64,000 nt of DNA from Flavobacteriales bacterium (lineage in GTDB: Bacteria; Bacteroidota; Bacteroidia; UBA10329). Shown here in pieces: positions 17,905-36,461 of this stretch. Position numbers and translations under genes: made by a program. The DNA lies in contig JAGYJL010000007.1 of the NCBI GenBank assembly GCA_018402015.1, positions 13,440 through 77,439 of the forward strand, given 5' to 3'. Under the pieces are notes generated by a model that worked only from the letters and a program-made list of their open reading frames with translations, had not been told where the DNA came from and did no database searches. Every line of letters starts with the position of its first letter. Positions within the stretch are counted from its first letter, which is position 1.

Positions 17905-18585
17905 TCAGTTCAATTTCATCTTAGCGTCTGTTATTTCCTCTGGGGAATATTTAAGGTTCTTTCCCATGGTGCCAGCAAAGCGTTTCCAAAACCCTTCGCG
18001 GTCCGGTAAGGCAACAAAATCCTCCACTCTTGACCCAGTAGGATCAATGGCTATAGCCTCCATATCATCATAATACGTATGTATGGTATCGAAAATGGCA
18101 GGTACAAATGCCAGATCCAATTTTTTGCGTTTGGCAAAAGAACGTACCATCTTAGATTGGAACGGATCGGTAGCCAAAGCAACTTTCTGAAATCCAAGGT
18201 CTTTGGCCATGTAGTAGGAGTAGAATACATTCTCTGTGCTGTGCTCGGCCCGTTCTTCGGTAAAAACATGTTCTGCTGGCACGCCCAACTTCTTCGCGTA
18301 TTCGGCCATAATGCGCGCTTCTATATATGGGCTATACACTGCACTGCCCGAAAAGATGATGTTCTTGGTAAGGCCTTGTGTGTAAAGATGGTAGCTCCAA
18401 AGTACACGGGCACGCATTACATCGCTCCAAGCTGTGTCGAAAGGAACACCGGGCACAATAACCGCATCAAAGGGCATTTCAGGCTTTACTTTTTCAAAGG
18501 CTGTTCTTGTACTTCCGCAAGAAACTATTCCAATAATACCTATCACTACCAAGTGATACAGCACTAGTTTTCCTAAAAATCTCAT
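17905..18585 (-). CDS. DUF218 (YdcF/ElyC/SanA-like) family lipoprotein
   Basis: ATG at 18583-18585 (MRFLGK...IVSCGS lipobox-like). DAVIVPGVPF...IIFSGSAVYSPYIEARIMAEYAKKLGVP...EERAEHSTEN matches the DUF218 core. Confidence 0.75.
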   Translation of the reverse strand: MRFLGKLVLYHLVVIGIIGIVSCGSTRTAFEKVKPEMPFDAVIVPGVPFDTAWSDVMRARVLWSYHLYTQGLTKNIIFSGSAVYSPYIEARIMAEYAKKLGVPAEHVFTEERAEHSTENVFYSYYMAKDLGFQKVALATDPFQSKMVRSFAKRKKLDLAFVPAIFDTIHTYYDDMEAIAIDPTGSRVEDFVALPDREGFWKRFAGTMGKNLKYSPEEITDAKMKLN

Positions 18586-18628
18586 GATATTCAAAAATGA
18601 AACTGAACGTAAAATCGGTGCAATGCTA

Positions 18629-19297
18629 CTATATCTCCGTGGCGAAACAAAGTTCTACTTGCTCAGATGGTTTCCACAACAGACCATGTGTACCTTGTCT
18701 ACGCACCTCTTTTGATTTACGCTCAACAAGGGGAGTGAATTCATCTCTGAAGGCAAGTTGGTGATCGATATCCAACTCGAACGATTTCCAGTAACGATTA
18801 ACAATGGAAAATTTTGCTGGAAGGAAATCCACATTGCTCATGTCGTGACCTTCCAGTTTTGCGATGAACTGGATCATTCCAGATTGCCACATATCCGTTG
18901 CCACGGCAACTTTCTCAAAACCGTATTTCTCGGCTATTTCCATCGAGTAGAATACGTTTTCCATGCTGTGCTCTGCGTTACGCTCCAAAATAAGTGCCTC
19001 TGCCGGAATGCCTTTCTCCATGAGGTAAAGCGCGAATATCTCTGCCTCTACATAGGGAGAGTGAACAGCGCCACCAGAGAGAATGATGTGCTGTGTTCGA
19101 CCTGTTTGATATAGTTCATAGGCCCAGGCCAATCTCAAGCGATAAATGGCATTCATCTTTCCATCTGGATGGAAGGGAAATCCAGGGATTATAACAGCAT
19201 CATATAATTGAGGTGTTTCTTTTGCCAAAGCAACCGTGGTTGACAATGGAAGTAGCATGGTAAACGTTACTAGAAATGCATTGATTGACCGTTTCAT
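18629..19297 (-). CDS. DUF218 (YdcF/ElyC/SanA-like) family protein, tandem paralog
   Basis: YDAVIIPGFPF...IILSGGAVHSPYVEAEIFALYLMEKGIP...ERNAEHSMEN is collinear with the neighbouring gene. Confidence 0.75.
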   Translation of the reverse strand: MKRSINAFLVTFTMLLPLSTTVALAKETPQLYDAVIIPGFPFHPDGKMNAIYRLRLAWAYELYQTGRTQHIILSGGAVHSPYVEAEIFALYLMEKGIPAEALILERNAEHSMENVFYSMEIAEKYGFEKVAVATDMWQSGMIQFIAKLEGHDMSNVDFLPAKFSIVNRYWKSFELDIDHQLAFRDEFTPLVERKSKEVRRQGTHGLLWKPSEQVELCFATEI

Positions 19298-19452
19298 ATT
19301 GTGTGTCTATTGGTTAGTATGGAAACAGAGCTGTTTAACATTTGTTCAATTAAAACAATAAAAAGTTAAACAAAATGAAAATTACGAAGGGCGAAGCCCA
19401 GGGGTCACAGTCGGCTCGTAGCTCCCTTTCCCCTGAACTTCCTTTCCTTCGA

Positions 19453-20070
19453 TTATCTTTTCCGTTTAAGCATATTCACATTCCAGCCCAATCCGAATGA
19501 GATTCTGAATTCATCCAGTGCGTAGTTGGTGCCCCATTCGGTTGCGTGTTTGGCGTGTACATATTTCAAGTTGGCCATGAAGTGGATGTATCGCCACACG
19601 TAGAAATTGAACCCCGTGGCCACCGAAATGGCTGGTGATACTTTCATCACAGATTCTGCGTATGCCACAGGAACCTCAGCCGTTCCTTGGTTCGGATTCC
19701 GTGCCTGAATGAGACTCACACCCGGATGAAAGCCAATGTAAGGGTCGAAGCGCTTGTACGGCATATGGTACTGAGCCCCAAAGAACAGGCTATGGTTGTG
19801 CTTCAAATAACCATTGCCTTGCGTATCCAAGAAGTAAGAGATGTCGCCTTTCAGCGAAATTCTGTCTTCCAAGAAATACTCCATGTCGCCTTGCAGATAG
19901 AGGTTGGTTTTGCCATCTGCAATCGTCCAACCGGGCGATATGGTTCCTTGCGCGCGCACCAGACCTTTGCGGATAATGTCTTCGCCAGTCAGTTCTGGTC
20001 GGTTCTTTTTTTGCCCGAAGGCTATGCTTGACGACAGCGCAGAAACAATTAGAACCGTCATTGCGAGCAT
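19453..20070 (-). CDS. putative outer-membrane beta-barrel protein
   Basis: Start trimmed to MLAMTVLIVSALSSSIAFGQ (ATG 20068-20070; an alternative ATG is at 20061). The first ~30 codons of the track ORF translate a REP-like hairpin. Alternating beta-strand pattern. Confidence 0.5.
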   Translation of the reverse strand: MLAMTVLIVSALSSSIAFGQKKNRPELTGEDIIRKGLVRAQGTISPGWTIADGKTNLYLQGDMEYFLEDRISLKGDISYFLDTQGNGYLKHNHSLFFGAQYHMPYKRFDPYIGFHPGVSLIQARNPNQGTAEVPVAYAESVMKVSPAISVATGFNFYVWRYIHFMANLKYVHAKHATEWGTNYALDEFRISFGLGWNVNMLKRKR

Positions 20071-20130
20071 AGCGCGGCAATCTGCGTTCAGCATGAGATT
20101 ACTTCGGCCTTTTGGGCCTCGTAATGACGT
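20055..20130. repeat. REP-like palindromic intergenic element (GTCATTGCGAG...CTCGTAATGAC type)
   Basis: Outer arms CCGTCATTGCGAG / CTCGTAATGACGT. Inner hairpins AATCT...AGATT and GGCC-TTTT-GGGCC. Translation gives the SLRG..K....DC.A.LAMT pseudo-peptide typical of this Bacteroidetes repeat class. Confidence 0.6.
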
Positions 20131-20150
20131 GGTTTGGGGGAGAAGGGAGG

Positions 20151-20783
20151 TTACCATAGGTCAGCGATTTTATAGTTGATACCAAGGGTGAATAATAAGT
20201 GACCTTCGAGGCTGAGTCCACCGTGGTCGTGGATCTCGAAAACGCCTTCTTCTTCGTGCGCCTCTACGTGTCCGCCCAGGTGGAACATATACTGCGCTAC
20301 AAATGTGAGATCGAAGCGTTCGGTAATATTGAAGTGGTTCCCAACTCCGCACTGAATGGCCGAACTCCAACGTTCTTTCGAGTTTTCGGGGTTTGCGTTC
20401 TCAGAAACCTTGGTGTAATCGAAACAATGACCCATTACCAGATACGGTTTCATCAGTTTGGTGTATGTCTTGTCCTTCAGCGGATAGAACATCACCGACC
20501 AGCCAATGTGCGCATCCTGACGATTACCCGTGCTGCCTATTTGTGAGGTCATGTAATCGGCAAACCATTCGGTATTGATGCGGTCGTGAAACTGCAAGCG
20601 GAACTGCCCTCCGGCACCAACACTTGTTCCTTGCCAAGAACCATGGTTAAAGGTGCTGATGGTGGTTCTCATCCCAAGAGAGAACAAGCCACCGTGGTGG
20701 TTCTTCAGCTTCAATGTTTCTGTTTGCGAATGGGCGAGTGCCGGTAGCAAGGCCCACAGGAGAATTCCACTTTTCCGTAGCAT
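20151..20783 (-). CDS. putative outer-membrane beta-barrel protein
   Basis: Signal peptide MLRKSGILLWALLPALAHSQ. Alternating hydrophobic strands. C-terminal ...GINYKIADLW has an aromatic terminus. Confidence 0.55.
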   Translation of the reverse strand: MLRKSGILLWALLPALAHSQTETLKLKNHHGGLFSLGMRTTISTFNHGSWQGTSVGAGGQFRLQFHDRINTEWFADYMTSQIGSTGNRQDAHIGWSVMFYPLKDKTYTKLMKPYLVMGHCFDYTKVSENANPENSKERWSSAIQCGVGNHFNITERFDLTFVAQYMFHLGGHVEAHEEEGVFEIHDHGGLSLEGHLLFTLGINYKIADLW

Positions 20784-20941
20784 GGCGTTGAGGTGTTGGT
20801 TTGTTGCTTAAACCAGCCCGTGGCACCGGAAATTGTGGGTGTTAACGAATGTTAAAGACTTTGCAACGTGGCATGCTAGAGCCCGCGCAGAATAGGGTCG
20901 ATTCTAAACTTCAGACCCTCTTAGCACGTGTATAGAGCAGC

Positions 20942-22453
20942 TTATTCTCCCTGACCAAGCGAAAATCCTCTTACCCCATCAAAAGCATAGAGGTTTTCGG
21001 TTTTAATGATGTCGAATCCTGCTTGGTGAATGGCGTCCAACAGCTGCAATAACTGCGGCATACTCACTTGTGCATACTCAGGATTTTCATCCGTTGTAAG
21101 TGTTTCGCTCGACACGAATCGGCATCTCCAATGGTCGGTGCAGAAGGTCTCATCGTGCCCATTCGGATACACTTTTACGCCTCGGTTGGTTATCATCTTC
21201 AGCTTCATACCGGGTTTTTCGGCAGCATCTAGCATTTCGCCAAGTTGCTTCGCGTCAGTATGCGGCCAATCCAGAAACACATCTACTCCCAGCAAGGTCT
21301 TTTTCACTTCCTTTCGGGTAAAGGCAGGCAATGCTATTTTGCCGCTTCCTTCACTGAGAAAACTACTTGGTATACTTACTGGCCGCTTGCCTAAACGCTC
21401 AATAAGCGCATCTGCAAACTCGTTGGTTCCTACACGTTTCTTGCTGTGCTTCTCCGAGTAGATATCGGCCGTATGAAAACCATCCTCAATGGTTCGCAGC
21501 CAAGCATTCTTGATCTTATCTGCCGCTTCTGCTTCGCCAATATGCACCAACATCATTACTGCTGCGTTCAGCAGGCCAGAAGGATTGGCCATGTCTTTTC
21601 CTGCTATGTCAGGAGCTGAACCATGTATGGCTTCAAACATAGCCACGTTGGTGCCTATGTTGGCAGAACCTGCCATGCCTACCGAACCGGCCAATTCTGC
21701 GGCAATATCAGAGATAATGTCTCCGTAGAGGTTAGAGGTAACGATCACATCATAATCTTCGGGCCGAGTGGCCAATCGGGCAGAGGCAATGTCTATGATC
21801 TGCGTGTCCTGCTTAATGTCTGGGTATTCCGCACCTATTTCATCAAACACGCGGTGAAAGAGCCCATCGGTAAGCTTCATAATGTTGTCCTTCACCATGC
21901 AGGTTACCTTCTTCCGACCGTAAGCTCTGGCATATTCAAAAGCATAGCGCACAATTTTCTCGCAGCCGGGGCGCGTTATCAGCTTCAGGCACTGCACCAC
22001 ATCGGCCGTTTGCTGATGTTCTATTCCCGCATACAGGTCTTCCTCGTTCTCCCGAATGATCACCACATCCATCTTTGGAAAGTGTGTTTCTATATACGGA
22101 TGCAAGGCTTGCACTGGTCGCACGTTGGCAAACAACCCGAGGGTCTTGCGCATGGTCACGTTCAGACTTTTGTAGCCCTTGCCTTGTGGGGTGGTAATAG
22201 GCCCTTTGAGAAGTACCCGATGCCTGCCTATTGTTTCCCAAGCATGTTTGCCAATGCCCGAAGTTTCTCCAGATAGGTACTGTGCTTCGCCTACAGAAAT
22301 GGGTTCAAACGCAACATTGGCGCCCGCTGCATCTATAATCCGCAAGGTGGCGTCCATTATTTCCGGGCCAATTCCGTCTCCGTGAGCAACTGCTACGGTT
22401 GTTAGCCTGTTTGTTGGTTCTTTTTCTGTCGACATATTCTGAGCTGCTATCAT
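20942..22453 (-). CDS. icd: isocitrate dehydrogenase (isocitrate/isopropylmalate dehydrogenase family, long form with C-terminal extension)
   Basis: VAVAHGDGIGPEIMDA, SLNVTMRKTLGLFANVRP, NLYGDIISDIAAELAGSVGMAGSANIG and FEAIHGSAPDIAGK are ICDH/IMDH signatures. An alternative ATG is at 22435. Confidence 0.85.
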   Translation of the reverse strand: MIAAQNMSTEKEPTNRLTTVAVAHGDGIGPEIMDATLRIIDAAGANVAFEPISVGEAQYLSGETSGIGKHAWETIGRHRVLLKGPITTPQGKGYKSLNVTMRKTLGLFANVRPVQALHPYIETHFPKMDVVIIRENEEDLYAGIEHQQTADVVQCLKLITRPGCEKIVRYAFEYARAYGRKKVTCMVKDNIMKLTDGLFHRVFDEIGAEYPDIKQDTQIIDIASARLATRPEDYDVIVTSNLYGDIISDIAAELAGSVGMAGSANIGTNVAMFEAIHGSAPDIAGKDMANPSGLLNAAVMMLVHIGEAEAADKIKNAWLRTIEDGFHTADIYSEKHSKKRVGTNEFADALIERLGKRPVSIPSSFLSEGSGKIALPAFTRKEVKKTLLGVDVFLDWPHTDAKQLGEMLDAAEKPGMKLKMITNRGVKVYPNGHDETFCTDHWRCRFVSSETLTTDENPEYAQVSMPQLLQLLDAIHQAGFDIIKTENLYAFDGVRGFSLGQGE

Positions 22454-22573
22454 TCCCGCTTGTTTTTGAATGTGCCAAACCTATGCAGCTATAATCATAA
22501 TTAAAAGTAAATGTTTTATATATAGTACATAATCAATAGTTATGTATTGAAAGTGGGAATGGAACCAAATTCA

Positions 22574-22608
22574 AGACCCCGAGGCGTTACGACTTAACCT
22601 CGGGGTCT
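22574..22608 (-). terminator. stem-loop terminator candidate downstream of the FN3 gene
   Basis: AGACCCCGAGG / CCTCGGGGTCT forms an 11-bp perfect stem with a 13-nt loop. A second 7-bp hairpin (CGTTGGG...CCCAACG) lies at 22611-22634. The U-tract is weak. Confidence 0.5.
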
Positions 22609-22652
22609 AACGTTGGGCCATTGCTGACCCAACGGAATCACACAAACTGAAA

Positions 22653-23270
22653 TCAAGTGGCTGCGCTGGTGGCCTCTGTGCTCGGATTACTGGCACCTGC
22701 AGAGTTGGTGGCGTGCACACGGAACCTGTAAATGCGACCGCGCTCCAGCCCTTGGTGCAGGTAAATGTTCTTTCCTTGGGTTTTGATGTCTTTCCAATAG
22801 CCACCTTTCTCATCTTCTATGAACATTTCAAACACATACTGCTTCTTGTAATTGGTGCCGTTGCACTTCATGTACACCGAACCGTTATACATTCCCGGTT
22901 TGGCCATAAAACCAGTTGGCACATCGGGTACGGGCCATCTACTGCCATCACTCTTTGTTTCCATGCCTGCCAAGGCGGTCATTTCCGGATCGCCAAGGGT
23001 AACGGTCTGTACATAAAGTACCTGTAGATCCATGGAGTAAATAAGCTTCTTCAGGTCCTCGTCCCGTTTAAGGGTTCGGTCTTTTCCCCCTTCGCTGGCG
23101 GCTGCCTCCGATTGTTCCAAGGCATCGGCCTGTAAGGTAAGATCGGCCAGTGGCGGATTTGGATTGGGGAAGACAGCCGCATTCTCGGTCATCTTCTGTA
23201 CAACGAATCGTACTTTTTTAATTCTCTCCAGGACACTGAATTTGTCCCATTTCAAAACGACTTTACGCAT
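22653..23270 (-). CDS. orphan fibronectin type III domain protein (no signal peptide)
   Basis: 205 aa, ATG at 23268-23270. The C-terminal half ends in YRFRVHATNSAGASNPS, a typical FN3 F-G strand motif. The N-terminal ~90 aa are helical and unassigned. Confidence 0.6.
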   Translation of the reverse strand: MRKVVLKWDKFSVLERIKKVRFVVQKMTENAAVFPNPNPPLADLTLQADALEQSEAAASEGGKDRTLKRDEDLKKLIYSMDLQVLYVQTVTLGDPEMTALAGMETKSDGSRWPVPDVPTGFMAKPGMYNGSVYMKCNGTNYKKQYVFEMFIEDEKGGYWKDIKTQGKNIYLHQGLERGRIYRFRVHATNSAGASNPSTEATSAAT

Positions 23271-23496
23271 GATTTCTTCATCTTATGCGCTTTGCCCATG
23301 TTCAACTGAGCGCTACTATGTTGTCGTATACTTTGGGTCGGTGTTGAACCACCGCTGTGATTGCTTTAAAAACTTAGGGGGCGCGTAAAATATTGTATCC
23401 TGATGGTGAAAAAAGAGTCGAATTTTATCTAAATGATTGAAAATCAGTGAGAAAAAAATTCATACACCCGGCCAGAAAACCCCCAAAAAACGTTCT

Positions 23497-23727
23497 CGGT
23501 TACGGTTTTTCCCTTGCCCTTTTTCATTTTTCCATTCCCCGTTTTCATTTTTCTTAACACGGTTACGGTTTTTCTTAACCCCCTTTTTGTTTTTCCATTG
23601 CCCGTTTTCATTTTTCTTAACACCGTTACAGTCTTTCTTAACCCCCTTTTCATTTTTCCTTTAACGGTTTTCATTTTTCTTAACACGGTTACAGTTTTTC
23701 CTTTACCCTTTTTGGTTTTTCCCTTGC
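23497..23727. repeat. tandem array: 11 contiguous 21-bp units forming a 63-bp (A-B-C) super-repeat x3.7
   Basis: Units were read by hand: cggttacggtttttcccttgc, cctttttcatttttccattcc, ccgttttcatttttcttaaca and so on. Units 3 and 6 are identical and unit 9 differs by 1 nt. The + strand is pyrimidine-rich with two T-tracts per unit. Confidence 0.9.
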
Positions 23728-23744
23728 TCATTCGGTTTTGGAAG

Positions 23745-23835
23745 ATGAAAGAAAACGCCTCTTATGTGAAAAATGCGCCTCCTAACGTGAAAAAACATGC
23801 CTCCTGTGCAAAAAACCGCAGCCTCTGCCTCCTGT
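23745..23835. repeat. second short tandem family (about four 21-bp units, consensus GTGAAAAAnnGCCTCCTnn)
   Basis: atgaaagaaaacgcctcttat | gtgaaaaatgcgcctcctaac | gtgaaaaaacatgcctcctgt | gcaaaaaaccgcagcctctgcctcctgt. The last unit carries a 7-nt internal duplication. Confidence 0.7.
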
Positions 23836-24126
23836 ACGAAAGCCGCTCTTAGCAAAGGGCTGTTTTGGTTTTGGGTGTTGGAGGAGAGGCAAGGGGGTGT
23901 TGAAAATTGTTTAAAACGCGTTGTTGGAAGTTTGGGAGGGGTTTGGTAGTATTGGCTAAAGAAAACAGCAGCTAGGTGCAAAAGTTGATCATAGCACTGC
24001 TTTTGAGGGGGCTAACGATACTTTCTGTGCTCCGACAAAGCGGGCTATAGGTAACTGGGTATCTTTAGCCAGTAGTTGGGGGTAATAATAACAGAGCATC
24101 GTAAGAACGACAGATAAATAAACGAC

Positions 24127-25680
24127 ATGAGAAAGCTTGTTTTACTTCTCTTGGTTATTCTGGTTGCCAGTATGGCTAAGGCGCAACAACATTGGGGATT
24201 AGACAGTTGCTTTGGTACCGATGGAATAGTCATTACTGACCTAGGACAAAATCATGACTATGGTAATTCTGTTCATATTCAGGAAGACGGAAAAATCGTG
24301 GGTACTGGACAATCCAATAACGGAGGTCAATCGAGTTCTAGCTTTGCTCTAATCAGATATAATAGTGACGGCTCCCTTGACGAAAGTTTCGGGTCAAATG
24401 GATTTGTTTTGACACCAAATGGAGCTTCAGAGGCTTCTATACTGCAACCAGATCAAAAAATTATTCTGTCTGGATACCATGGTACCGACCTCCTTAGTAG
24501 TACGGCATTTGCTTTATTGAGATATAATGCAAATGGATCGTTAGACCCAAGCTTTGGCACAAATGGAAAAGTGGCAACGTCATTTGGTAATTTCATTCAT
24601 AGAGGAACCGGAGTGGTTGTTCAGCCAGATGGAAAAATTGTGCAAAGTGGCAGCCTAAGAAATGAAGTGACAAAATTCATTTTACTTCGGTTCGAAACGG
24701 ATGGCACGCCTGATTCCACATTCGGAGAGGATGGAAGAGTGACAATAGATGTTCCCGATTTTGGCGCAACTCATACGTTGGTTTGCCAAACGGATGGAAA
24801 ACTAATAGTAGGTGGTAGGTTACGTAATGGGTCCTCCATGGATTTTGTAATGATGCGTTATGATTCAAATGGAACAATCGACCCCACTTTCGGAACAAAT
24901 GGAGTGGTATTTACCGATGTGGGAGGACACAATGAAAGTGAGGCTTGTATCAAGCTATTGCCCAGCGGAAAAATCCTTCTAACAGGAAGAGTTGACCTTT
25001 CAGGTGAAACGCGCGATTTTTGGTTGCTTCGATACAACTCGGATGGAAGCTTGGACAACACCTTTGCAACCAACGGAATCGCTCGTACAGATCTTGGTCA
25101 TGATGACATCAGTATTCTCACAATCCCTCTTTCAAGCGGAAAGATTATTGTTGGTGGCTGGACATACCCAGATGCCACTGAAAAGAACATCGGTATTGTC
25201 CGATACAATGAGAACGGTTCTGTTGATTCGACTTTTGGAACGGATGGAATCATCATTACATCCGCGAGTGATAATCCTGATTACTGTTGGTGGGGAGCAG
25301 AACAGAACGATGGAAAGTTTGTCCTATTCGGAGCTACAGATGGGCTTCCAGCGCCTCCTTTTAATCGTAATTTTCTAATCCTAAGATATTCAACCGAAGG
25401 TTGCGGTATCAGCGGCATAGATAACCCAGTCAGCACAGAAGAACTATTTAAGTTTTACCCCAATCCAGCTTCTGAAAATTTACACATTGAATACAATCAG
25501 AAACTCACTCAAGGTTCCATATCACTGACAATCATTGACGCACTCGGACAAACCGTGTCTTCGCACCAACTTATCTCAAAGAAATCAACCCTTGACATTG
25601 GTGAACTGAAAAGTGGAATTTACCTTATATCTGTTACTGATGGTTCATATAGTTTGAGCCGAAGATTGGTAGTTGAATGA
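24127..25680 (+). CDS. delta-60-repeat beta-propeller protein with T9SS type A CTD
   Basis: Signal peptide. Repeated ...DGKI(V)...G......F.L(I/L)RYN.DGSLD.(S/T)FG.NG... about 8 times, which is the delta-60 repeat pattern. C-terminus FKFYPNPASENLHIEY...GIYLISVTDGSYSLSRRLVVE. Confidence 0.75.
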   Translation: MRKLVLLLLVILVASMAKAQQHWGLDSCFGTDGIVITDLGQNHDYGNSVHIQEDGKIVGTGQSNNGGQSSSSFALIRYNSDGSLDESFGSNGFVLTPNGASEASILQPDQKIILSGYHGTDLLSSTAFALLRYNANGSLDPSFGTNGKVATSFGNFIHRGTGVVVQPDGKIVQSGSLRNEVTKFILLRFETDGTPDSTFGEDGRVTIDVPDFGATHTLVCQTDGKLIVGGRLRNGSSMDFVMMRYDSNGTIDPTFGTNGVVFTDVGGHNESEACIKLLPSGKILLTGRVDLSGETRDFWLLRYNSDGSLDNTFATNGIARTDLGHDDISILTIPLSSGKIIVGGWTYPDATEKNIGIVRYNENGSVDSTFGTDGIIITSASDNPDYCWWGAEQNDGKFVLFGATDGLPAPPFNRNFLILRYSTEGCGISGIDNPVSTEELFKFYPNPASENLHIEYNQKLTQGSISLTIIDALGQTVSSHQLISKKSTLDIGELKSGIYLISVTDGSYSLSRRLVVE

Positions 25681-25690
25681 AATTACTACC

Positions 25691-25815
25691 CCCAACATCA
25701 ACTATAAAAATAGGGCGCGAAGTGTTTGCCGCAAGTTCATCACGGTTAGCAGTTTTCGGTTTCGGGCGAAAGGTCGAAGATGTTAAAGCCCTATTTTCAT
25801 AGCAGTAACCGTTGG
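25691..25815 (+). repeat. structured intergenic repeat, copy 1 (immediately after a T9SS-cargo stop codon)
   Basis: It shares a 5' module (CCCAACATCAACTATAAAAATAGGGC) and a 52-nt 3' module (GGGCGAAAGGTCGAAG...TTAAAGCCCTATTTTCATAGCAGTAACCGTTGG) with 26779-26920. AAAATAGGGC (25707-25716) is complementary to GCCCTATTTT (25788-25797). Confidence 0.6.
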
Positions 25816-25830
25816 GATTAATTCAAAAAA

Positions 25831-26777
25831 ATGGGACGACACGCATTCATACTGACATTTTTTGTTTGTCCGCTCCTGTCTTTCGGTCAGGACATAAAAG
25901 GAGGTGAAATGTCTTACAGCTTAGTTTCAGGACTGACCTGCTCATTTGACGTCTTACTCTATTCGCAGACAAGTTTGGGAATATCGCATGACACAATCAT
26001 GTTCCATGCAGGGACGGAACGGTTGGATACGCTTTTGGGTGTTTCAACCGACCTTCCGAATGATGTAACTGAATGGCAATACACCACGACACATACTTAT
26101 GCCTCAGCTTCCACCTACGTGGCAACGGTAAGCGACAGTTTTAGAGTTGGTGGCATTCTGGCACGCTAACTCAGTTTCAGAGCCAATTCATTTACAACAA
26201 GAGTGTGACATTAGTCCGTTTATAGAACCAATACATCACTAGTAAACAAAACACACAAACTGGACAGTTATGCGGACGGCTCGTATTACTACCATGACCC
26301 GATGGTAAGCGATTTGGAAGGTGATAGTTTGGGTTTCAGTTTGGTTTCTTCGTCATCTGGCATTTATACCATGCCGACATATTCCATCGACCCGATTACT
26401 GGTGTGGTTCAGGTTCTTGCTCTACAGCAGGGCTTATTAGCTATCAATCTTGAGGTTCAAGAATACCGTAACGGAACTCCAATTGGTCGTTCTTAATGGG
26501 AAATGCTGCTTGACAGCCAAGAACTGGGGCTGACATCAACGACAACGAGACAACAAGGGTTGGAATTTATCCAAACCCAGTACAAAATGACCTGACCATT
26601 GAATTGCAGGACTTCAACTCTGACAGTTCATCATTCGTGACATCCTTGGAAAGCAAATACTTACAGGCTCGTTGAATTCAAAACAACTTGTGGACATCAG
26701 CTCATTATCTGACGGCACTTACTTCCTGACAGTCTTGCTACGAACATGACACGTACACGAAAAATAATAAAGAACTA
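25831..26777 (+). pseudogene. decayed T9SS cargo gene (GGE.sY / D.(E/D)GDSL..SL family with type A CTD)
   Basis: The N-terminal ORF (signal peptide + GGEMSY...) stops at 26167. Homologous reading continues in other frames: ANSVSEPIHL.., HDPMVSDLEGDSLGFSLV.., VGIYPNPVQNDLTIEL.., IRDILGKQILTGSLNSKQLVDISSLSDGTYFLTV.., TRKIIKN*. At least 5 frame disruptions or stops. Confidence 0.65.
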
Positions 26778-30615: not shown

Positions 30616-31611
30616 ATGAGCGAAGTAATTGACATCAGACAGATCAATGAGTTGATCGAAAAAGAAAGTGCCTTTGTAGACCTCATTACCATTGAGATGA
30701 ACAAGGTGATCGTAGGTCAACAACACATGGTTGAAAGCCTACTTATTGGTTTGCTTTCAAAAGGACACATTCTGTTGGAAGGTGTTCCGGGGTTGGCAAA
30801 GACGCTTGCCATTAACACATTGGCTTCTACCATCAGTGCGGATTTCAGTAGGATCCAGTTCACTCCAGACCTTCTACCTGCCGATGTGGTAGGAACGCAG
30901 ATCTACAATCAGAAAACAGGCGGGTTCGATGTCCGTAAAGGCCCTATCTTCTCCAATTTCATATTGGCCGATGAGATCAACCGAGCTCCGGCAAAGGTGC
31001 AAAGCGCATTGCTGGAGGCCATGCAAGAGAAGCAGGTAACCATTGGAGATGTGACCTACAAAATGGAAGAACCATTTTTGGTCATGGCCACCATGAACCC
31101 AATTGAGCAGGAGGGAACCTATCCGTTGCCAGAAGCGCAGGTAGATCGTTTCATGCTGAAGGTGGTCATTACGTATCCGAATAAGAAAGACGAAGCACAG
31201 ATCATCCGCCACAACTTGGCAGGAGAGTTCCCTAAAGCGAATTCCGTGCTTAAACCAGCGGATATTCTTAAAGCGAGAGAAGTGGTTCGTCAGGTGTACA
31301 TGGACGAGAAGATCGAGAAGTACATTGTAGATATCGTTTTCGCTAGCCGCTCTCCTGAAGAATATGGTTTGGGCAAGTTGAAAGATCTTATCAGCTTTGG
31401 CGGTTCTCCTCGTGCAAGTATTGCGCTGGCAAAGGCAGCCAAGGCCTACGCCTTCATTAAGCGCAGAGGCTACGTTATTCCAGAAGATGTTCGTGCAGTT
31501 TGCAACGATGTGTTACGTCACCGAATTGGATTGACCTACGAAGCAGAAGCGGAGAACATCACTTCGGAAGAGATCATTGCAGATATTCTGAACACGGTTG
31601 AAGTACCTTAA
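30616..31611 (+). CDS. MoxR-family AAA+ ATPase
   Basis: Walker A GVPGLAKT and Walker B ILADEINRAPAKVQSALLEAMQE. Typical MoxR length of 331 aa. Confidence 0.9.
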   Translation: MSEVIDIRQINELIEKESAFVDLITIEMNKVIVGQQHMVESLLIGLLSKGHILLEGVPGLAKTLAINTLASTISADFSRIQFTPDLLPADVVGTQIYNQKTGGFDVRKGPIFSNFILADEINRAPAKVQSALLEAMQEKQVTIGDVTYKMEEPFLVMATMNPIEQEGTYPLPEAQVDRFMLKVVITYPNKKDEAQIIRHNLAGEFPKANSVLKPADILKAREVVRQVYMDEKIEKYIVDIVFASRSPEEYGLGKLKDLISFGGSPRASIALAKAAKAYAFIKRRGYVIPEDVRAVCNDVLRHRIGLTYEAEAENITSEEIIADILNTVEVP

Positions 31612-34668: not shown

Positions 34669-35706
34669 GTGTTCAGGTTTGGAGATGAAATATGGCTGTA
34701 TGCGTTGCTGGTAATTCCGGCACTCATTGTATTGTATTGGGTTAACGCCCGGTGGCGAAAGCGTGTGCTGCAGCAATTGGCAGATGCCAATGTGCTCGAC
34801 AACTTGATTCCAACGTTTTCCAAGGTTCTTCCAAGATGGAAACGACTTCTATTTACCGTGGGTATTGCCTTTCTTCTTGTCGGAATGGCCAACCCACAGA
34901 TAGGCACCAAGTACGAAGAAGTGAAGCGAGAAGGCTTTGAGCTGATGATCTGCTTGGATGTTTCGAACAGTATGCTGGCCGAAGACCTTACCCCGAATCG
35001 ATTGGAGCGTGCGAAACAGGCGATTTCCAGATTGGTGGATAGGTTGAAGAACGATAAGATCGGTGTGATTGTTTTTGCGGGAGACGCGTTCATTCAATTA
35101 CCAATGACCGTTGATCATTCGGCAGCTAAATTGTTTCTCCGTTCCATTGATACGGATATTGTGCCGACTCAAGGAACGGCCATTGGTAAGGCCATTGAAC
35201 TGGCAAGTTCTTCGTTCAGCACCAACACAAAAGCCAATAAATCCATTATCGTTATTACTGATGGAGAAAACCACGAAGATGATGCGTTGGAACAAGCAGC
35301 GGCAGCTGCTGAGCAAGGCATAAAGGTGCATACGATCGGTATCGGTTCGGTAGATGGCACACCGATTCCAATGTATAAACGTGGGCAAATGTTGGGTTAT
35401 CGCAAAGACCGAGAAGGTAATACAGTGGTTACCAAACTCAACGAGACCATGTTACAGCAAATTGCAGCTTCTGGAGAAGGAACGTATGTTCGCGCAAACA
35501 ATAGCAGAACCGGTCTGAACGTGTTGATGGATGAATTGGAAGGCATGCAACGGGAAGAATTCGGCAGTAAAATGTTTACCAGTTACGAAGATCGTTTTCA
35601 GTACTTCGTAGCTGTGGCATTGCTGTTGTTGCTGATAGAAGTGCTTTTGCCATCTCGTAAATTGAAACTATTCGGAAACGTGAATCTATTCTCGGTCAGG
35701 AAATGA
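34669..35706 (+). CDS. batB: VWA-domain aerotolerance protein BatB
   Basis: GTG start. TM pair, MIDAS motif ELMICLDVSNSM, ITDGENHEDD, and a C-terminal TM. Confidence 0.85.
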   Translation: MFRFGDEIWLYALLVIPALIVLYWVNARWRKRVLQQLADANVLDNLIPTFSKVLPRWKRLLFTVGIAFLLVGMANPQIGTKYEEVKREGFELMICLDVSNSMLAEDLTPNRLERAKQAISRLVDRLKNDKIGVIVFAGDAFIQLPMTVDHSAAKLFLRSIDTDIVPTQGTAIGKAIELASSSFSTNTKANKSIIVITDGENHEDDALEQAAAAAEQGIKVHTIGIGSVDGTPIPMYKRGQMLGYRKDREGNTVVTKLNETMLQQIAASGEGTYVRANNSRTGLNVLMDELEGMQREEFGSKMFTSYEDRFQYFVAVALLLLLIEVLLPSRKLKLFGNVNLFSVRK

Positions 35707-36461
35707 AAGTGTTTCGGTTCATATGGATATTGATGCTGCCAATTTTGGCTGTAGCTCAGGAAAATCCTGCGGCCAATGATCTTATTGAAAAGGGCAACAA
35801 GCTTTATGAGGACGGTAATTATGGTGAAGCAGAAATGACATACCGTGAAGGCCAGGCGCAAGGTGCAGATGCGTTCATCTCTGGTTTTAATCTAGGTGAT
35901 GCGCTTTTCAAACAAGAACGGTATGAGGAAGCTGCTGCGGCATTTCAGTCGTTGCCCAATCTTACCGATGACAAGGAGAAGAAAGCCTCTGCATTTCACA
36001 ACCTTGGCAACTCGTTTTTAAAGGCGCAGAAGTTTCAAGAAAGTGTTGATGCGTACAAGCAATCGCTTCGAAACAATCCGAAAGACCTGGAAACCAAGTA
36101 TAACCTAGCTTACGCTAAGCGAATGTTGCAAGAACAACAAGAACAAGAGCAGCAGAATCAGGATAACCAAGAGAATCAGGACAAGCAAGATCAAAAGCAG
36201 GATCAGCAGCAGCAACAAGATCAGAATAAGGAAGAGAAGAAGGATGATGAGCAGAAGCAAGATCAGCAACAGCAACAACAAGATCAAAAGCAAGAAGAGC
36301 AAAACCAGGAGCAGCAACAACCGCAAGAGAACAAGATATCTAAAGAAGACGCTGAGCGAATGCTAGACGCACTTAATCAGGAGGAAAAGGATATCCGCGA
36401 CCGTTTGGAACAACAGAAAGTACGAAAAGGTGTTAAAGGAACGATAGAGAAAGACTGGTAA
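35703..36461 (+). CDS. batC: TPR-repeat protein BatC with Gln/Glu/Asp/Lys-rich low-complexity region
   Basis: ATGA overlap. TPR segments (GNKLYEDGNYGEAEMTYRE, AFHNLGNSFLKAQKFQESVDAYKQSLRNNP), then about 70 aa of QEQQ/QDQK. Confidence 0.75.
   Translation: MKVFRFIWILMLPILAVAQENPAANDLIEKGNKLYEDGNYGEAEMTYREGQAQGADAFISGFNLGDALFKQERYEEAAAAFQSLPNLTDDKEKKASAFHNLGNSFLKAQKFQESVDAYKQSLRNNPKDLETKYNLAYAKRMLQEQQEQEQQNQDNQENQDKQDQKQDQQQQQDQNKEEKKDDEQKQDQQQQQQDQKQEEQNQEQQQPQENKISKEDAERMLDALNQEEKDIRDRLEQQKVRKGVKGTIEKDW

Follow-up and report, generated by a model that had tools for sequence, protein, structure and literature searches.

Most known examples of phased protein-binding sites in tandem arrays come from plasmid origins and partition centromeres, with a small number from operators. 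The subject of this analysis is an array of 21-bp units in a 64,000-nt stretch of DNA from a Flavobacteriales bacterium (contig JAGYJL010000007.1, hereafter the window), situated upstream of a gene for a protein with an FN3 domain (the FN3 gene). The array exists, is under selection and has not been described before. In the favoured interpretation it would function in the way of iterons, repeat centromeres or LytTR operators, but it lacks defining features of each.

Theta plasmids carry iterons, as in pPS10 or in the R6K gamma origin with its contiguous 22-bp repeats. These are head-to-tail repeats of 17-22 bp, phased on one helical face; they diverge fast, and their binding protein is encoded by the adjoining gene. 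With 11 repeats of 21 bp, the array falls within this size range and is likewise phased and fast-diverging. Unlike iterons, it is accompanied by neither a Rep initiator, nor a DnaA-box cluster, nor a plasmid or phage context, and genomes with two modules occur. Partition centromeres are made of 20-bp repeats in pSK41 parC, 11-bp repeats in R1 parC and 7-bp heptads, the sites of the omega protein, in pSM19035; such repeats regulate the operon downstream of them. The omega heptads tolerate a direct or an inverted orientation, and centromeres are variable in sequence and constant in architecture. The array resembles them as a series of contiguous short repeats upstream of an adjacent gene, with a heptamer substructure. 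Unlike partition centromeres, the module contains no ParA/ParM NTPase or ribbon-helix-helix protein, is chromosomal, and has an FN3-domain protein encoded next to the repeats.

Heptads are also found upstream of ctxAB in Vibrio cholerae, where ToxR and H-NS bind TTTTGAT repeats that offer a regulator many sites on one platform. The heptads there are simple, number 3-8 depending on the strain, and have no 21-bp higher order. The A/T-rich 7-bp tandem substructure upstream of a promoter-like region is shared with the present array, whereas the stable, conserved 21-bp super-unit is not. The operators of LytTR-family regulators (AgrA/AlgR/ComE type) are direct repeats of ~9 bp with a gap of ~12 bp, hence a centre spacing of 21 bp, upstream of a promoter (PMC2766830). 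In the array, a core of 7-8 bp and a spacer of 13-14 bp similarly add up to 21 bp, upstream of a promoter-like block. LytTR operators are, however, pairs of sites; the array has 11-17 contiguous repeats, and its orientation flips among lineages. By eye, the LytTR consensus [TA][AC][CA]GTTN[AG][TG] is matched only in part, by GTTAAG in some spacers, and none of the scanned open reading frames (ORFs) of the window was recognised as a LytTR gene.

ToxI arrays are tandem repeats directly upstream of one protein gene, with a repeat length that is constant within a family, and often occur in defence contexts (PMC12283969; PMC8860590). One criterion for these type III toxin-antitoxin systems is that a Rho-independent terminator separates the repeats from the toxin gene (PMC12283969). 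The position directly upstream of a single protein gene and the constant repeat length are shared with ToxI. The array differs in having no terminator, units of 21 nt instead of ~34-45 nt, no pseudoknot and no fixed orientation. Moreover, the adjacent protein is a helical bundle with an FN3 domain, unlike the type III toxins, which are endoribonucleases (ToxN/AbiQ, CptN or TenpN). Finally, the unique spacers that separate the repeats of a CRISPR array are not present, as the units are contiguous.

A 21-bp register conserved among lineages

The array is located in an 856-bp divergent gap, between the FN3 gene on the - strand and a DUF5122/Por_Secre_tail gene on the + strand:

23497-23727, - strand: main array, 11 x 21-bp units with a 63-bp super-repeat.
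23728-23748, strand not applicable: linker, degenerate, exactly one unit long.
23749-23853, + strand: second repeat family, ~4-5 units of GTGAAAAAnnGCCTCC in the same 21-bp register.
22653-23270, - strand: FN3 gene, 205 aa, with a helical N-terminal domain and a C-terminal FN3 domain.
24127-25680, + strand: DUF5122/Por_Secre_tail gene, on the far side of the divergent gap.

The main array consists of head-to-tail units without a single base between them. An earlier reading of this DNA from its sequence only (the sequence-only reading) had described 11 spacer-free 21-bp units arranged in a 63-bp super-repeat, and Tandem Repeats Finder (TRF) confirmed it at the window locus (period 63, 3.3 copies, 85% matches, score 291, span 23517-23722). 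The units at 23539 and 23602 are indeed identical, and that at 23665 differs by 1 nt. The unit is GGAAAAACCGTAACCGTGTTA; on the strand of the FN3 gene, each unit consists of a core RGAAAAA (7-8 bp) and a variable spacer of 13-14 bp. Each 21-mer decomposes into three degenerate heptamers, GRAAAAN. The A/T-tracts, which had been thought to recur about every 10.5 bp, are in fact 7 bp apart: for AA/TT, a period of 7 has a Fourier power of 10.3, vs. 0.76 for a period of 10.5, and the autocorrelation falls from 0.42 at lag 7 to 0.19-0.22 at lags 10-11. The description of the + strand as almost pure pyrimidine was overstated, the measured content being 77%. No further occurrence of the triple-phased core pattern was detected in the 215 kb examined.

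A second family starting at about 23745, with about four units, had also been reported and does exist; its supposed 17-nt linker lies within one 21-bp unit length, by which the register is held between the two families. The cores of the second family point in the opposite direction to those of the main array; in a profile comparison, the family corresponds to the main array read in reverse complement (p = 0.03). Positions 23497-23853 thus form one continuous 21-bp register of about 17 units, linker and second family included. The best autocorrelation at this locus is 0.88, vs. a 95th percentile of 0.434 for controls (137 segments of 900 bp drawn from the window).

For comparison, 29 loci with homologues of the FN3 gene were fetched (designated L), and 16 distinct lineages of uncultured Flavobacteriales were compared. 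In 15 of the 16, autocorrelation upstream of the gene peaks at a lag of 21, 42 or 63 bp. Such a best lag was found in 14 of the 137 control segments, and the chance of at least 15 out of 16 lineages at this rate is ~1e-14. The FN3 proteins of the lineages with an array are just 48-74% identical. A perfect 21-bp register extends over 8-14 units in L001, L002, L010, L012, L014, L016, L017, L018, L021, L024 and L029; the weakest arrays barely exceed the 95th percentile of the controls (L004, 0.45; L021, 0.46; L028, 0.47). The sequence-only reading had counted absence or lack of conservation in close relatives against a function, and the outcome was the opposite.

Despite the common register, the unit sequences are mostly unrelated among loci: GAAGCACCCAAAGCCTTAAAG in L001, TTTTGCTTCAGACGGCATTTC in L010, TCATTTCCTTGAATCAGGTTT in L018, ATGnTGnnCAAAGGTTTAAGA in L029 and a 42-mer in L012. 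When unit profiles were compared against column-shuffle controls, the window units proved homologous, in the same orientation, to those of L014, L016, L017 and L021 (p<0.002) and of L001 (p = 0.004). No profile similarity was detectable to the units of L005, L010, L012, L018 and L024. The L002 array, represented by three contigs, is similar to the window array in inverted orientation (reverse complement, p<0.002), as in AGAAAAACCACAACCGCTGTTG vs. AGAAAAACCGTAACCGTGTTA.

By blastn, the shared module extends from 24058 to 22567 of the window, about 1.5 kb. The FN3 gene is the sole gene travelling with the array, and the genes around the module differ in every lineage. Two module copies are possible in one genome (L004/L005, L016/L026). 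In L016 (2570-2790), an 11-nt inverted repeat brackets the array (AAAAACGTCTC ... GAGACGTTTTT), and a similar motif, GA(G/A)ACGTTTTT, follows the arrays of the window locus and L010.

Selection and flanking elements

Divergence of the array was set against that of 4-fold synonymous sites of the FN3 gene. Between the window locus and L019, whose FN3 proteins are 95% identical, the array differs at 13 of 196 positions (0.066) and the 4-fold sites at 0.167; a compensating +1/-1 indel pair keeps the register. Between L016 and L017, the values are 30/157 (0.19) for the array, 0.507 for the 4-fold sites and 0.06 for block 1 (see below). Substitution in the array is 2.5-4 times slower than at the synonymous sites. 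The changes concentrate in the spacer and spare the RGAAAAA core: the entropy of unit columns 1-6 is ~0, the spacer columns are variable, and L016 and L017 show one difference in the seven core columns (0-6) over ~7.5 units. These two loci have 10 and 8 units, respectively, a difference in whole units. In five populations, the arrays are identical among independent samples, and a hypervariable variable-number tandem repeat or a phase-variation switch was rejected on this ground.

Several other conserved elements are present on both sides of the array:

23894-23968, + strand: block 1, with TTG (23924-23926), a 20-nt spacer and TAGTATTG (23947-23954).
23969-24058, strand not applicable: distal conserved module, ~65% identical to L016 and L017.
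23436-23447, - strand: block 3, CTGATTTTCAAT, a partial palindrome after a T-tract, at -177.
23384-23500, strand not applicable: predicted curved stretch, T-tract-rich, between the array and the FN3 gene.
23367-23396, - strand: candidate FN3 promoter, with conserved ACAATA, 16-17 nt and GTTTTTA, at -128 to -101.
23294-23353, - strand: structured 5' leader RNA (block 4), two hairpins with complementary loops (GTTCAA/TTGAAC).

Block 3 is found at -174 to -178 relative to the ATG in 11 loci and is a candidate factor-binding site. Its distance to the array core is 1-2 (mod 21) in six loci of five lineages (the window locus, L014, L016, L017, L019 and L021), and the linker sequence between the two has diverged despite this fixed distance. 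The low divergence, the identity among samples and the constant core-to-block-3 phase indicate that the array is maintained, that purifying selection constrains its sequence and that its geometry with respect to the promoter-proximal region does not change. A role of the array as a phase-preserving spacer from block 1 to block 3 was rejected, as these distances are not constant modulo 10.5 or 21.

Block 1 carries TTG, a 20-nt spacer and TA(A/G)TATTG and is directed away from the array (spacer length counted by eye in the window locus, L014 and L016). It is conserved in six loci, the window locus, L001, L014, L016, L017 and L018, with unrelated upstream genes. It resembles a Bacteroidetes-type -33/-7 promoter and is putatively an outward-facing promoter. 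Beyond block 1, no convincing shared RNA fold was identified in four sequences. On the other side, the ACAATA/GTTTTTA element is a candidate promoter of the FN3 gene. With block 1 on its far side and this element on the gene side, the array lies between two divergent promoter-like regions.

The stretch adjoining the array was examined with a wedge model, using Bolshoy-Trifonov angles; the percentiles given below are indicative only. Positions 23384-23500 come out as the most curved 150 bp of the 64-kb window, with a mean of 14.2 degrees/turn vs. 6.0 +/- 1.4. In several orthologous loci, a strongly curved stretch is likewise situated just downstream of the array.

The leader hairpins, GGTG[GTTCAA]CACC and GCTCA[GTTGAACA]TGGGC, were both recovered by RNAalifold. 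Pairing is maintained in 94% of cells, vs. 25-39% with the partners slid, and compensatory changes occur in 12 of the 15 pairs, a number not reached in any of 500 shuffles. These changes affect stems and loops over 14 loci, for example GGTCTT/AAGACC in L010. The leader matches no Rfam family and is undescribed; its loops could form a kissing-loop pseudoknot. In L002, its orientation is unchanged although the array is inverted, and blocks 1 and 3 were not detected there by motif search.

Interpretation of the array

As an alternative to a regulatory scaffold, the sequence-only reading had proposed a present or former miniprotein with a 21-aa repeat. A heptad-repeat miniprotein could be encoded by either of two ORFs over the window array, a Lys-rich one on the - strand (23444-23731, 95 aa) or a hydrophobic one on the + strand (23514-23852, 112 aa), and gene callers have placed ORFs of 42-83 aa upstream of the FN3 gene in L014/L015, L016, L019, L021 and L024. 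Two frames are free of stops, not three as had been stated; the other four carry 1, 2, 5 and 14. With a base composition as biased as this, stop codons are in any case rare. The orthologous arrays have no start-bearing ORF in common, and no frame is consistently open: a single frame without ATG crosses the arrays of L012 and L018, in-frame stops are present in L001, L017 and L029, and the candidate 'start' ATGs are internal GGAAAAATG motifs. Furthermore, the miniprotein ORFs match no family.

The codon-like phasing reported between copies 2 and 3 of the super-repeat, with 7 of 9 mismatches at coordinates equal to 2 mod 3, was reproduced but weakens over all copies (5/10/16 by codon phase, chi-square p = 0.05). 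Since mismatches recur in few polymorphic columns, a column-aware null was used, in which the 21 unit columns are permuted. The resulting p-values are 0.06, 0.14, 0.18, 0.02 and 0.02, among them 0.18 within the window array and 0.06 against its closest orthologue, and the phase signal of the window locus fades accordingly. In the Gly-Lys (GK) frame of the - ORF (GGA-AAA), the window locus and L019 show an excess of synonymous changes (7 vs. 6 non-synonymous, naive p = 0.009). Between L016 and L017, however, it is the frame one base away (TGG-AAA-AAC) that is favoured; in the GK frame, 1 synonymous change stands against 22 non-synonymous ones. The wobble positions of the core GGA and AAA 'codons' are invariant across lineages, and the ~5-6 altered codons in the tail of the - ORF, compared with the 95%-identical relative, are all non-synonymous. 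On this sequence evidence, the protein-coding reading is rejected as highly improbable. More generally, codon-phase arguments on tandem repeats require a column-aware null model.

The other half of the sequence-only reading, an iterated regulatory scaffold, is supported by the conserved period, the selection, the core/spacer pattern, the phase and the orientation flip. The array is hence tentatively interpreted as a non-coding series of helically phased protein-binding sites, acting at the DNA level in the control region of the FN3 module. It would offer 11 sites, or 17 with the second family, each with one 7-8-bp core per 21 bp, i.e., per two helical turns, between the two putative divergent promoters of a ~1.5-kb module (22567-24058) whose sole gene is the FN3 gene. 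A sequence-specific protein would occupy the cores, all on the same face of the helix, and a co-operative nucleoprotein array would form over them. This structure would control the putative FN3 promoter, situated some 90 bp further downstream, and perhaps also the putative outward promoter of block 1.

Several observations weigh against this interpretation. No binding protein was identified, and no regulator gene is present nearby. The cores differ in L001, L010, L012, L018 and L029, so that the partner would have to co-evolve with the array or else respond to shape or spacing instead of sequence. The evidence for the two putative promoters consists of motif and conservation. Unit-wise recombination alone could keep multiples of 21, the period being then in part a mechanical inheritance, and the conserved phase of block 3 could partly reflect shared descent. 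Finally, the 3-nt periodicity of substitutions in L016 and L017 is marginal (p = 0.02) and unexplained.

It is also conceivable, though unlikely, that the element acts as RNA: the array would be transcribed, in a long leader starting from block 1 or independently as a small RNA, and would bind or titrate a protein, possibly the FN3 protein, in the manner of ToxI or of a sponge RNA. Its place directly upstream of one protein gene with which it travels, the constant repeat length with diverging sequence, as in ToxI, and the frequent conflict or defence genes among the upstream neighbours are in line with this. So is the predicted RNA, unstructured and hence accessible, with a purine-rich GGAAAAA every 21 nt. 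However, the array is inverted in L002, as is the second family in the window, and such a transcript would read UUUUUCC instead of GGAAAAA; the L002 inversion thus disfavours a strand-specific RNA motif. A promoter-like block and a separate structured leader stand between the array and the gene, and no Rho-independent terminator was found between them on the gene strand in the window locus, L016, L014 or L002; the sole same-strand match in L002 (344-361) is at the 5' edge of the array. Folding of the array RNA is not significant against shuffled sequence on either strand (z = +0.68 and -1.11), and the FN3 protein has no ToxN, CptN, TenpN or PADLOC match. With no ToxN-like toxin, no terminator and no pseudoknot fold, the locus cannot be assigned to the type III toxin-antitoxin systems. 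Rfam covariance models gave no match at the gathering threshold in the window (two chance-level matches to eukaryotic snoRNAs, E up to 10), and neither known RNA families nor tRNAs were found. A long hairpin joining the oppositely oriented families was rejected, its fold being no better than shuffled, as was an independent antisense transcript ending at a hairpin at 23845-23860, which is not significant and is unconserved in L014, L016, L017, L021 and L001. If, instead, only the two-turn repetition mattered, whatever the sequence, the array would be curved or architectural DNA. This is very unlikely, even if 21 bp equal two helical turns, the total twist of the 63-bp units (2158-2172 degrees) is near 6 turns, conservation extends to the period but not to the sequence, and strong curvature is predicted for four arrays, those of L002, L005, L014 and L021 (<=2.6th percentile). 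The window array, at the 80th-82nd percentile of the end-to-end ratio, is predicted to be straight, together with those of L001, L010 and L018 (47th-82nd percentile as a group), and, according to the wedge model, curvature is not the common denominator of the loci. The bends of the A-tracts cancel over 21 bp, as the tracts are 7 bp apart; the intrinsically curved array of the sequence-only reading is therefore not retained, and the predicted curved stretch (23384-23500) adjoins the array instead. In addition, if the period alone counted, there would be no reason for purifying selection to keep a core invariant.

A neutral minisatellite, in which unequal recombination in unit register would preserve the 21-bp period by itself, is equally hard to sustain. 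Higher-order periods of 42 and 63 bp are an expected product of register-wise recombination, and the unit numbers of L016 and L017 differ. On the other hand, the array persists in 15 of the 16 lineages, over FN3 proteins of 48-74% identity, evolves 2.5-4 times slower than 4-fold sites, does not vary between samples and keeps its spacing to block 3. The partner of the array could also be the FN3 protein itself. In that case, the array would be a centromere- or iteron-like cis site bound by the helical N-terminal domain, which would co-evolve with it, with a filament serving autoregulation, segregation or defence. This possibility is unlikely, more so than the RNA-level role, although these two are the main rivals. 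The FN3 gene alone is always linked to the array, the unit sequences vary by lineage as in centromere or iteron repeats, the contiguous ~20-bp repeats are upstream of the gene that would be regulated, and a gene for a ParA-like ATPase is located directly downstream of the FN3 gene in L029. However, no DNA-binding fold was detected in the N-terminal domain, and a fold search of the PDB with the protein matched only FN3 domains. The window contains no Rep gene and no genes for a ParA/ParM NTPase or a centromere-binding protein (the ParA-like gene being confined to L029), and no DnaA-box cluster. The locus is chromosomal, without plasmid or phage homologues, and unrelated unit sequences occur beside FN3 proteins that are ~70% identical. 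Along the same line, the array and the FN3 protein could be an undescribed two-part system adjoining defence islands, in which the protein, or one that it recruits, would polymerise, as on a centromere or iterons, on a fast-evolving and orientation-independent repeat track, under the control of the kissing-loop leader; this is likewise considered doubtful. The phased series of binding sites for a sequence-specific protein remains the favoured interpretation.

The FN3 gene and its genomic setting

Homologues of the FN3 protein are confined to uncultured Flavobacteriales and Bacteroidia. The N-terminal domain is predicted to be a bundle of long helices (model pLDDT 91), and no signal peptide is evident. 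This domain family comprises at least 173 clusters at 50% identity, and most listed members have ~200-210 aa. In the ten clusters checked, all sequences are derived from metagenomes or metagenome-assembled genomes and are unnamed or called 'hypothetical protein'. No Pfam, NCBIfam or PHROG Rep match was obtained for the FN3 protein. A phage or plasmid origin of the gene was considered and rejected, no phage or plasmid homologues being matched; the window carries housekeeping genes, e.g., that of isocitrate dehydrogenase.

The variable upstream neighbours of the module are often conflict or defence genes (L001, L014, L021, L026, L029): AIPR, an nSTAND NTPase with DUF4062, PDDEXK_4, GIY-YIG and Trypco2. 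The module may therefore border on a variable island.

In the window, the long ORFs switch strand at the divergent gap: those at 17905-23270 are on the - strand, those from 24127 up to about 44600 on the + strand. The cumulative GC skew climbs steadily past about 24 kb. An origin of replication (oriC), suggested by the skew and the orientation switch, was rejected: DnaA boxes with at most one mismatch were not found in 19976-26567, and some genomes carry two modules. Short in-frame tandem repeats with periods of 6, 9, 12, 15 and 18 (CAAGAAGAGCAAAAG-like) were also observed at 36129-36304, inside the ORF 35703-36461, with a 63-bp autocorrelation of about 0.65. This cluster is probably a low-complexity coding segment rich in Gln, Glu and Lys. 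The ORF is situated among co-oriented + genes downstream of a gene for a MoxR-type AAA+ ATPase (30616-31611).

The array is a chromosomal counterpart of the phased repeat arrays of plasmids, tied to a widespread protein family without functional annotation. Over deep divergence, the period, the phase and a short core are kept, whereas the remainder of the unit is replaced and even the orientation of the array may change. It is thus a natural experiment on repeat scaffolds, in which selection acts on spacing and helical face rather than on sequence. Together with block 3 and the leader RNA, it provides handles on the role of the FN3 family in marine and freshwater Flavobacteriales.

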